Source: Desulfomicrobium sp.
GTDB taxonomy: Bacteria; Desulfobacterota; Desulfovibrionia; Desulfovibrionales; Desulfomicrobiaceae
Direction of reading: 5' to 3'
Length of the DNA stretch: 64,000 nt
NCBI GenBank assembly: GCA_040768745.1
Contig: JAXGMI010000001.1
Location: 1,248,001-1,312,000 of the forward strand
The notes below the pieces were generated by a model. It was not told the DNA's origin and made no database searches. It was given only the letters and a program-made list of their open reading frames with translations. This document shows positions 38,725-45,819 of this stretch, one piece after another. The translations under genes and the position numbers were made by a program. Each line of letters starts with the position of its first letter. Positions within the stretch are counted from its first letter, which is position 1.

Positions 38725-38800
38725 TGGCTCCCCGGGACAGATTTGAACTGCCGACAGGGTGGTTAACAGCCACCTGCTCTGCCAACTGAGCTACCGGGGA
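38725..38800 (-). tRNA. tRNA-Asn(GTT), copy 1
   Basis: TCCCCGGTAGCTCAGTTGGCAGAGC..CTGTTAA..GTTCAAATC..GGGGAGCCA, 76 nt with encoded CCA; TTGACA upstream at about 38843-38848. Confidence 0.96.
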
Positions 38801-41001: not shown

Positions 41002-41077
41002 TGGCTCCCCGGGACAGATTTGAACTGCCGACAGGGTGGTTAACAGCCACCTGCTCTGCCAACTGAGCTACCGGGGA
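41002..41077 (-). tRNA. tRNA-Asn(GTT), copy 2 (identical to copy 1)
   Basis: Same 76-nt sequence; TTGACA at 41117-41122 on the minus strand. Confidence 0.96.
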
Positions 41078-43674: not shown

Positions 43675-44304
43675 ATGCTGCAGGTGACGGCGATGCCCCT
43701 CGGGGTGTTGGATACAAATTGTTATATAGTGCATACAGAGCGCGAGGCGACGGTCATCGATCCGGGGGGGGACGCGGACGAAATCCTGTCTTTTTTGGGC
43801 AGGAACAGGTTGACCCTGACCACGATCCTGAACACACATCTCCATTTCGACCATATCCAGGGCAATGCCGACCTGGTCGCCGCCACAGGCGCGCCAGTGC
43901 TGGCCAGCCCCAGGGACGGTTATCTGCTGGGGACCGAATTGGGGGGCGGAGGCATGATGGGCTTTCCACGTACCCCTGTTTTTTCGTTCACCCACCTCGA
44001 CGAGGGAGAGCAGACTTTTCTTGGCGCGGTTTGCCGCGTCCTGGCCACACCTGGTCACAGCCCGGGCAGCCTGTCCTTCTATTTTGCCGAAATCGGTTCT
44101 GTTTTTGTCGGCGACCTGCTTTTTTACCGGTCCGTAGGCCGTACGGACTTTCCCGGCAGCTCCGAGAGGGACCTCCTGCGCTCCGTGCGGACCAAGATTT
44201 TTTCCCTCCCCGAGGCCACTGTGGTCTACCCTGGACACGGTCCGGAAACCACAGTGGGAGCGGAACGTCTGAACAATCCCTTTTTCACGGAATTCATCCG
44301 TTAG
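43675..44304 (+). CDS. MBL-fold hydrolase (glyoxalase II-like)
   Basis: THLHFDH, TPGHSPG, GDLLF..GRTD, PGHG. Confidence 0.9.
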   Translation: MLQVTAMPLGVLDTNCYIVHTEREATVIDPGGDADEILSFLGRNRLTLTTILNTHLHFDHIQGNADLVAATGAPVLASPRDGYLLGTELGGGGMMGFPRTPVFSFTHLDEGEQTFLGAVCRVLATPGHSPGSLSFYFAEIGSVFVGDLLFYRSVGRTDFPGSSERDLLRSVRTKIFSLPEATVVYPGHGPETTVGAERLNNPFFTEFIR

Positions 44305-44312
44305 GAGATGAC

Positions 44313-44540
44313 ATGATTGCCGATGGCGAGCATGATTTCCGGAGCCAATGCTGACACGTGGGTGTAGACGCCAGTTGGCATCTCCGTTTCGGACGCAAGG
44401 ACAGGCAGGTTTTCTGGGTCAGCCCGGGAGTGGTCCCCCAGTTGGAAAATGTCCTCTATGTTGAAACCGATTGGACCCTGACCCTGGCCCCGGTTGGGGA
44501 ATGGATCCGTGCGGAATTCACGCGCAAGCCACGCCCATGA
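44313..44540 (+). CDS. Small protein with in-frame TGA at codon 14 (candidate selenoprotein, otherwise a nonsense pseudogene)
   Basis: AGGAG RBS (44303-44307) overlaps the upstream TAG; ATG 44313; TGC-TGA-CAC at 44349-44357; the frame stays open to TGA 44538-44540, which overlaps the next ATG. Confidence 0.6.
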
Positions 44541-45088
44541 TTCCACTCGTCCTGTCCTTGAGCCCCCGACCCGAGGGCAATTCCGACAGCGCGGCCGAGC
44601 ATTTCGCCCGGTCCCTGGCTGGACCCAGCACGTTTCTCCGTTTGCGGGACCATGTCGTCGCGCCCTGCACGGGTTGCGGGGCCTGTGCCAAGAGCGGAAG
44701 ATGCGTGTTCGCCGACGGGGACCATGCCGAGGGCCTCTTCGCCAGCCTGGATGCGGCACCCATGGTCATGCTCGCCGCCCCGGTCTATTTCTACCATCTG
44801 CCCGCCCAAGCCAAGGCCTGGATAGACCGGGCCCAAAGCCGCTATCTCAGCGGCAGATTCGGGCAGGGGATCATCCGTCCTGCATATATTGTCCTGGTTG
44901 CCGGCAGAACCCGGGGGGTACATCTTTTTGCCGGCATCATGCCCACCTTGCGCTATTTCCTGCAGGTTTTCGACTTCTCCATCCAGGGTACTGTGCATTT
45001 GCGCGGACTGGATGGGCCCAGGGATCTCCTCGCCAACGAGAAGGCCTTGGAGGCAGTGGCCGCCCTGGCCCGGAGCAGCGGATGGTAG
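44537..45088 (+). CDS. Flavodoxin-like / iron-sulfur flavoprotein (NADPH-dependent FMN reductase family)
   Basis: SPRPEGNS, PCTGCGAC..GRC, APVYFY..KAWIDR. Confidence 0.85.
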   Translation: MIPLVLSLSPRPEGNSDSAAEHFARSLAGPSTFLRLRDHVVAPCTGCGACAKSGRCVFADGDHAEGLFASLDAAPMVMLAAPVYFYHLPAQAKAWIDRAQSRYLSGRFGQGIIRPAYIVLVAGRTRGVHLFAGIMPTLRYFLQVFDFSIQGTVHLRGLDGPRDLLANEKALEAVAALARSSGW

Positions 45089-45819
45089 CCAATGCGGCGT
45101 GCAGCCCCGCCTACCGGCTGCTTTCGAATTTTATGTTCAGGCTGGGTCGTCGCTGTCAGCTCTGCGCGGCAGTCCTCGACCATCCTGAGGATTTTCCTCT
45201 TTGTCCGCAATGTGCCGCTCTCCTTGCGCCGCGTCTGGGGGGCTACTGCCCTCGCTGCGGCGATTGCTACGCAGATCCCATGGCACCGGTTTACGACTGC
45301 TTGTCCTGCCGGACGGCCCCGCCGCCCTGGGCCGCCTTGGGTTTTTACGGTTCCTATTCCGGTCTGCTCCGGGATCTCGTACACCGGCACAAGTTCGGCC
45401 GGGACCATGGACTGGGAGTGATTCTGCGGTTCATGGTCCTCCAGGCCTGGAGGCTGCACGCCCTCGAACGGCCAGATATCATTGTTCCGGTGCCCATGCG
45501 GCCCATGCCTGTGCTGCGTCGAGGATTCAACCAGAGTGCGGAGCTTGGGCGCCTGCTGGCGGGCGCCCTCGGAGTGGCCTTTGCAGGGCAAGGGCTGCTG
45601 AAGATCAGGGAGACGAGGGCCCAGTCGAGTCTGGGCCGGGCGGCCAGGATGCGCAATGTGGCTGGGGCGTTCAGGGCTGCCAGGGACGTCGCTGGGCGGC
45701 GTGTGTTGCTCGTCGACGACGTCATGACCACAGGCGCCACCATGCGGGCCTGCTCCAGGGCGTGCCGGGAGGCGGGCGCAGCGCGTATCGAGGTCCTGGT
45801 TCTGGCCAGGGCGTCGTGA
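45082..45819 (+). CDS. comF: ComF family (zinc ribbon plus PRTase) protein
   Basis: Multiple CxxC, VPVP..RRGFNQS, LLVDDVMTTGAT. Confidence 0.85.
   Translation: MVANAACSPAYRLLSNFMFRLGRRCQLCAAVLDHPEDFPLCPQCAALLAPRLGGYCPRCGDCYADPMAPVYDCLSCRTAPPPWAALGFYGSYSGLLRDLVHRHKFGRDHGLGVILRFMVLQAWRLHALERPDIIVPVPMRPMPVLRRGFNQSAELGRLLAGALGVAFAGQGLLKIRETRAQSSLGRAARMRNVAGAFRAARDVAGRRVLLVDDVMTTGATMRACSRACREAGAARIEVLVLARAS

Follow-up and report, generated by a model that had tools for sequence, protein, structure and literature searches.

Does an in-frame TGA in a small gene mark a broken reading frame or a selenocysteine codon? The question arises in a 64,000-nucleotide stretch of Desulfomicrobium sp. DNA (assembly GCA_040768745.1, contig JAXGMI010000001.1, positions 1,248,001 to 1,312,000 of the forward strand; hereafter, the window). 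A first-pass annotation, made from the letters of the window, had proposed a single frame of 75 codons that starts at ATG 44313, passes through a TGA at 44352-44354, and ends at 44540, filling the gap between the gene for a metallo-beta-lactamase-fold (MBL-fold) hydrolase and that for a flavoprotein. All of its coordinates held when rechecked base for base: the ribosome-binding site overlaps the stop of the hydrolase gene, and the terminal TGA (44538-44540) overlaps the flavoprotein ATG at 44537. On the strength of conservation, the gene almost certainly encodes a selenoprotein with selenocysteine (Sec) at codon 14. Its elements are as follows.

44313..44540 (+), gene for a predicted 75-amino-acid selenoprotein, very probably of TusA fold, with the TGA read through at codon 14; assigned from homologs, a structural model (predicted local distance difference test, pLDDT, 91.9), and a fold search
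44303..44307 (+), Shine-Dalgarno-like AGGAG, overlapping the stop TAG (44302-44304) of the MBL-fold hydrolase gene
44334..44336 (+), Asp8, six residues N-terminal to Sec, a spacing equal to that from Asp to the catalytic Cys of TusA-family proteins; Asp in 85/85 loci
44349..44351 (+), Cys13, vicinal to Sec; Cys in 85/85 loci, with TGC and TGT both used, and in 30/30 loci of a second clade described below
44352..44354 (+), in-frame TGA, predicted Sec14, just before helix 1; TGA in 85/87 extracted loci, Cys in the remaining two
44366..44383 (+), predicted bacterial selenocysteine insertion sequence (SECIS) hairpin; its loop (44373-44376) begins at +19 from the TGA, with G at +20

The internal TGA is constant across the order. 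Of 61 related genomes, 41 gave a match to the read-through protein, 40 of these with one internal TGA; across the order, a 28-sequence profile (E 0.01) detected the gene in 172 of 301 genomes. TGA was present in all 150 of the matches listed for the order-wide profile (37 others were not listed); a few weak genome matches of this profile probably represent a Cys-only paralog, discussed below. We extracted 87 loci, picked for spread: 85 have the TGA, one (in genome G031) reads Cys-Pro-Cys (C-P-C), and one is the Cys-only paralog. Asp at residue -6, Cys at -1, and Leu at +10 relative to Sec are invariant in the 85 TGA loci, where the codons of the invariant residues vary synonymously, the Asp codon within the genus excepted. 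A word resembling a ribosome-binding site lies 5' of the chosen start in 71 of these 85 loci. Outside the genus, the gene ends in TGA, TAA, or TAG (41, 14, and 6 of 61 loci), whereas the internal TGA never changes. At codon 14, homologs have either TGA or Cys. The TGA recurs across the order rather than being private to one strain, and coding sequence is conserved on both of its sides, which rules out the simple nonsense mutation that had been offered as an alternative. The motif, originally described as Cys-Sec-His, needs trimming. Its Cys-Sec part occurs in 85/85 loci as Cys-TGA; His follows in 22/24 same-genus loci, but Gly replaces it in 55/61 others and therefore His falls outside the family motif. 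To judge from these alignments, the motif is Cys-Sec, and His is lineage specific. The closest named database proteins, 69 to 80% identical to the window protein, are from Desulfomicrobium, and more distant named matches are from Solidesulfovibrio, Nitratidesulfovibrio, Desulfolutivibrio, and Desulfonatronospira. One locus (L108, genome G658) has an extra in-frame TAA about 37 codons past the TGA and is possibly broken or affected by a sequence error. Contigs from four RNA-library runs cover the window gene wholly or partly with the TGA unchanged; such contigs prove neither transcription nor its level.

A check for selA, selB, selC, and selD, recommended in the first-pass annotation, found all four in the window genome, the selD gene containing a TGA and selC being a tRNA-Sec gene. 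In the order sample, selA is present in 280 of 301 genomes, and among the 20 listed genomes lacking it, only G037 carries the selenoprotein gene; G037 has selB, a Sec-type selD, and tRNA-Sec. The syntenic ortholog in G031 (L039, 1172-1390, minus strand) reads C-P-C, with no TGA. None of selA, selB, selD, and tRNA-Sec scored over the cut-offs in G031, a genome that is 85% complete, so this evidence for loss of Sec is suggestive only; in the congener G028, the four Sec-machinery genes lie at four distant places. The C-P-C locus, which still retains a hairpin, probably represents, at the sequence level, a Sec-to-Cys replacement with a one-codon insertion. Such replacement is described as rare in bacteria in the accessible part of PMC13188914. 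One database protein, P0084, reads Cys-Cys with its codon unconfirmed; the sole metagenome locus found (82% identical) carries TGA.

The hairpin AGACGCC-AGTT-GGCATCT, drawn at 44366-44383 in the first-pass annotation, is present as described, with seven pairs, including one C-A mismatch, and a 4-nucleotide loop; its register is upheld by comparison, not by energy. Taken by itself, it folds no better than chance relative to shuffles (z -0.90 to +0.35 in five fragments), and its 18-nucleotide core, at -5.4 kcal/mol (-5.4 to -6.3), is less stable than the -7.5 of the general bacterial SECIS model. Over 44355-44400, the most stable fold (-11.4) adopts another register, with the loop three bases further 5'. 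The window hairpin alone is unremarkable, and the case for a SECIS rests on comparison. Within the genus, the pairs that close the loop do not vary (24/24 loci), and neither does the G at +20. That G is kept in 84/85 loci despite changes in the amino acid encoded there (Ser, Gly, Arg, or Cys), and Ser at this site is encoded by AGT in 36/36 cases. We applied a hairpin test (loop start between +17 and +21, G at either of the first two loop bases, energy of -6 or lower over +8 to +38), which 82 of 85 family members and 0 of 30 Cys paralogs passed; as background, 505 of the 5,087 TGAs ending long open frames in the window genome also pass. Outside the genus (58 sequences), pairing across a 7-pair stem reaches 94.1%, and both sides have changed in 23 cells, a covariation that 0 of 500 shuffles reached and that exceeded all slid controls, although the figure is overstated because kin sequences are not independent. 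In the group that includes the window, the stem is shifted two bases around the same G and is conserved; covariation in this register is not significant (27 sequences, 23 distinct). The family geometry, with the loop at +19 and G at +20, agrees with the bacterial SECIS model as given in the accessible part of PMC13188914 (loop of 3 to 9 nucleotides, G in its first two positions, 16 to 37 nucleotides after the UGA). It also resembles the hairpins of SelD, NiFeSe hydrogenase, and two formate dehydrogenases of the window genome, whose loops lie at +18 to +24.

The same Cys-TGA arrangement extends to a second clade, found via a weak phylum-level match (G294) and present in 39 of the 61 genomes around it. 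Cys-TGA and G at +20 are present in all 30 of its loci, of which 27, with stems of another sequence, pass the hairpin test. The clade matches the family at profile probability 95.8 (score 45 versus a shuffle maximum of 15) and does not match the Cys paralogs (probability 1); in 24/30 loci the gene lies 5' of dusB. Named members include Dissulfurimicrobium hydrothermale and Dissulfurirhabdus thermomarina, alongside records labeled SeepSRB2, so that the clade includes sulfur disproportionators and seep-associated lineages. In 10 of the 30 loci (L197-L207), a hydrophobic segment in frame runs up to a Cys 15 to 25 residues before Cys-Sec and resembles a lipoprotein leader; most of these loci also have a Met after it, at which the gene may start instead. 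Beyond the order, our first profile gave 0 matches among 401 genomes of the phylum and a deeper one gave four weak matches among 301 genomes. Only G294 of these four was examined, and it proved real; the range of the family outside the order is therefore under-sampled.

The Cys-only paralog (Asp-x5-Cys-Gly-x-x-Pro; members P0065-P0067, P0077, P0078, and L158-L187) has at least 80 stop-free matches at E < 1e-12, all within one family of the order, and a profile search did not find it in the window genome. It matches the selenoprotein family at profile probability 99 over the whole length, with Cys (TGC or TGT) on the Sec/TGA column in 30/30 loci, and so, together with the C-P-C of G031, provides Sec/Cys pairing. 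Unlike the family, it has no TGA and no hairpin (0/30), has the preceding Cys in only 8/30 loci, and keeps one Pro (C-G-x-x-P). It stands directly after mnmE in 15/30 loci, and this mnmE-adjoining form may be a new TusA-like protein involved in modifying tRNA U34. Several members (L158 and L174-L187) are 80 to 85 amino acids long, with no Pfam or NCBIfam match among the members scanned. An Atlas search with the paralog returned unnamed clusters (best score, 0.78) and no lead.

What kind of protein is this? The first-pass annotation recognized no family, which stands as far as Pfam and NCBIfam models are concerned; the fold, however, is recognizable. The predicted structure (pLDDT 91.9) has the two helices and four strands of TusA, with strand 1 upstream of the TGA. 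We consider it very probable that the protein adopts a TusA/SirA-like fold (beta-alpha-beta-alpha-beta-beta), in which the model would place Cys13-Sec14 on the loop starting helix 1, at the position of the TusA/YeeD persulfide Cys. In sequence and profile alignments, as distinct from a residue-level structural alignment, Sec aligns with the TusA persulfide cysteine six residues after the conserved Asp. Two observations pull the other way. CPxP is missing, the corresponding residues being C-U-G/H for family members, C-U-K/R for the second clade, and x-C-G-x-x-P for the paralogs; and PF01206 is unmatched by the window protein, 15 homologs, and 26 second-clade members, while two canonical TusA genes of the window genome do match it. 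Nor was there a hit under E 0.2 for the family profile against sequences of solved structures, a Foldseek hit against PDB at E 0.001, or a profile match to a two-sequence TusA alignment. A tree built from part of the loci (80 trimmed sequences) separates the family (support 0.72), the paralogs (0.97), the second clade (0.88), and TusA (0.87); because the tree is short and has no trusted root, we claim no order of events. The canonical CPxP genes of the window genome lie at C1 796959-797147 (L052) and 225246-225434 (L053), the latter extending into a longer protein.

As a whole, a selenoprotein with a TusA-like fold serving as a Cys-Sec carrier or redox shuttle is our best explanation, and one that we favor with modest confidence. 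For the activity itself, sequence and model tip the balance slightly toward a small sulfur/selenium carrier or redox shuttle working via the Cys-Sec pair. SelB and Sec-tRNA would bind the hairpin, whose loop lies 19 nucleotides after the UGA, and Sec would be inserted at codon 14. The selenolate could then form an Se-S adduct by attacking a donor (sulfane sulfur, a thiosulfate-like compound, or a disulfide), and the neighboring Cys would either release the cargo or form a vicinal selenenyl-sulfide, to be reopened by a cellular reductant. Vicinal Cys-Sec ring chemistry is known from thioredoxin reductase. The two residues seem to act jointly, since Cys is invariant in 115 Sec loci and found in only 8/30 paralogs, and G031 keeps two Cys. 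By gene proximity alone, the position of related clades beside tRNA-modification genes (mnmE and dusB) hints at a sulfur relay to tRNA or cofactors. More tentatively, this may be the first protein of TusA fold in which Sec occupies the persulfide position, a dedicated sulfur/selenium shuttle in at least two orders of sulfur-metabolizing bacteria, which in part of the second clade could be a membrane-anchored lipoprotein passing sulfane sulfur across the envelope.

The main rival keeps the fold and has the Cys-Sec pair bind a soft metal or metalloid (Hg, Cu, Zn, or As) as a chaperone or sensor. Rare Cys-Sec dipeptides have been argued, in the accessible part of bioRxiv 10.1101/2022.07.06.499078, to signal heavy-metal contact in SaoL, SaoB, SaoC, HgcA, and MerT. 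The retention of both chalcogens as C-P-C in G031, the hydrophobic leader ending in Cys in 10/30 second-clade loci, and a ZupT-like transporter two genes upstream at one locus would also suit such a role. Yet the usual neighbors are not metal-handling genes, the Cys paralogs are mostly single-Cys proteins as in TusA (second Cys in 8/30), and fold and Sec position match a sulfur carrier, so we rate metal binding as unlikely. That the fold is instead an Alba/Smr/IF3-C-like nucleic-acid-binding module with Cys-Sec as a redox switch seems very improbable to us. We give even less credit to a TGA that is a real stop, leaving a short leader peptide and a 60-amino-acid gene or a pseudogene, or that is read as Cys or Trp. 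Gene callers do begin most database proteins at a GTG, TTG, or ATG past the TGA, codon +2 could serve as a start in 56/85 loci, and three database proteins have Trp at the Sec position. A real stop, however, would drift to TAA or TAG, and none is seen in the 85 family and 30 second-clade loci; part of the fold, strand 1, is encoded before the TGA; no downstream start is common to all members; and the window genome uses TGA as a stop, its UCA tRNA being called tRNA-Sec.

The remaining rival turns on the neighboring genes, which in the window are the following.

43675..44304 (+), MBL-fold hydrolase gene, upstream neighbor (PF00753, E 6.9e-32); upstream in 24/24 genus loci and 49/62 others
44537..45088 (+), gene for a flavodoxin-fold protein with a four-Cys motif (iron-sulfur flavoprotein type), downstream (PF03358 and PF02525); in 24/24 genus loci and 52/62 others
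45082..45819 (+), ComF/GntX-like phosphoribosyltransferase-fold gene (TIGR00201 and PF00156); downstream in 22/24 genus loci and 50/62 others

The conserved operon order is nitroreductase, MBL hydrolase, selenoprotein gene, four-Cys flavoprotein, and ComF, and the motif CxxCxxCx4-9C is found in 67/69 neighboring flavoprotein loci. A partnership with this flavoprotein, suggested in the first-pass annotation, is borne out as adjacency and fares less well as a function. The flavoprotein gene stands immediately 3' in 24/24 genus and 52/62 other loci, the stop and start codons overlap in 27/69 loci, and one RNA-library contig covers both genes, which does not demonstrate a single transcript. In two other genera, however, the flavoprotein gene lies beside the MBL gene with the selenoprotein gene cleanly missing (18/18 loci); since the operon survives this loss, the flavoprotein is no obligate partner. 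The gene also occurs without an adjoining flavoprotein in 10/62 loci outside the genus, and the second clade adjoins dusB instead (24/30). Linkage to ComF and to the MBL gene is of roughly the same strength, suggesting an operon that is conserved but mixed in content. A complex prediction for the C-P-C ortholog and its neighboring flavoprotein scored 0.00, giving no answer and counting neither way. We thus find it rather improbable that the selenoprotein is a dedicated redox partner of this flavoprotein, which would reduce its selenenyl-sulfide. At six loci (L048, L049, L088, L100, L105, and L106), the gene lies outside the usual operon, 3' of a gene for a 90-amino-acid membrane protein that resembles the GDT1/TMEM165 family, with no NCBIfam match at E 1e-8. 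Elsewhere in the window, two tRNA-Asn genes on the minus strand (38725-38800 and 41002-41077) flank about 2.2 kb with a long open reading frame that, by eye, has integrase-like and TOBE-like parts; this may be an integrated or duplicated segment.

The selenoprotein family, as judged from its sequences, is in all likelihood real and apparently uncatalogued. No NCBIfam 20.0 or Pfam model matches it (best NCBIfam E 0.044, unrelated), and the N-terminal motif is missing from 159/167 database proteins, the named ones being labeled hypothetical. The accessible 119-family selenoprotein table of PMC13188914, an inventory of 2026, has no TusA, SirA, or YedF entry; the words TusA and SirA are absent from the examined parts of PMC9312934 and PMC12013277, including four supplements of the latter; and the accessible part of PMC13490349 does not mention selenium. 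The seven Cys-Sec-Gly sites in the accessible PMC12013277 supplements are all from HgcA, SaoB, or a CopZ-like family, and the deep-learning screen described there reports, in its accessible parts, no new selenoproteins in its two Desulfovibrionia genomes, which may or may not carry the gene. The open-access literature searched, partly as listings and abstracts, holds no description of a TusA-fold selenoprotein family, and prior mention in subscription papers is possible. These results add a bacterial selenoprotein family truncated by annotation in Desulfomicrobium, Solidesulfovibrio, Nitratidesulfovibrio, Desulfolutivibrio, and Dissulfurimicrobium. The Trp-bearing database forms (P0011, P0083, and P0193) are a trap for Sec/Cys pair screens. 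They are probably code-4 gene calls; P0083 also reads its terminal TGA as Trp, and for P0011 and P0193 this origin is inferred.

If the fold assignment holds, selenium occupies the active position of a well-studied sulfur-carrier fold. The Cys-Sec form, the Cys-Pro-Cys form of G031 (which apparently does not use Sec), and the single-Cys paralog would then make a natural series for the contribution of Sec to sulfur transfer. The TusA, YeeD (TsuB), and SirA-like carriers (PF01206; PDB 3lvj_C, 8j4c, and 3hz7) share with the window protein a length of about 75 amino acids, the fold, and Asp-x5-(Cys/Sec) at the start of helix 1; the window protein differs in having predicted Sec for the catalytic Cys, an extra invariant preceding Cys, and neither of the CPxP prolines. 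The DsrE-like, rhodanese-like, and YeeE-family selenoproteins are likewise sulfur-transfer families with Sec for the active Cys, but, in the accessible part of PMC13188914, they have other folds and the motifs UxxC, UxxS, UxxG, CxU, and GUxSG. SaoL, SaoB, SaoC, HgcA, KCU-star, MbdU, and CopZ-like form 2, as far as their accessible descriptions go, resemble the present family in their vicinal Cys-Sec, their frequent database truncation at UGA, and their anaerobic hosts. Their NCBIfam models, in contrast, match 0 of the 55 members scanned, and the family described here combines its Cys-Sec pair with a predicted TusA-like fold and other neighbors.
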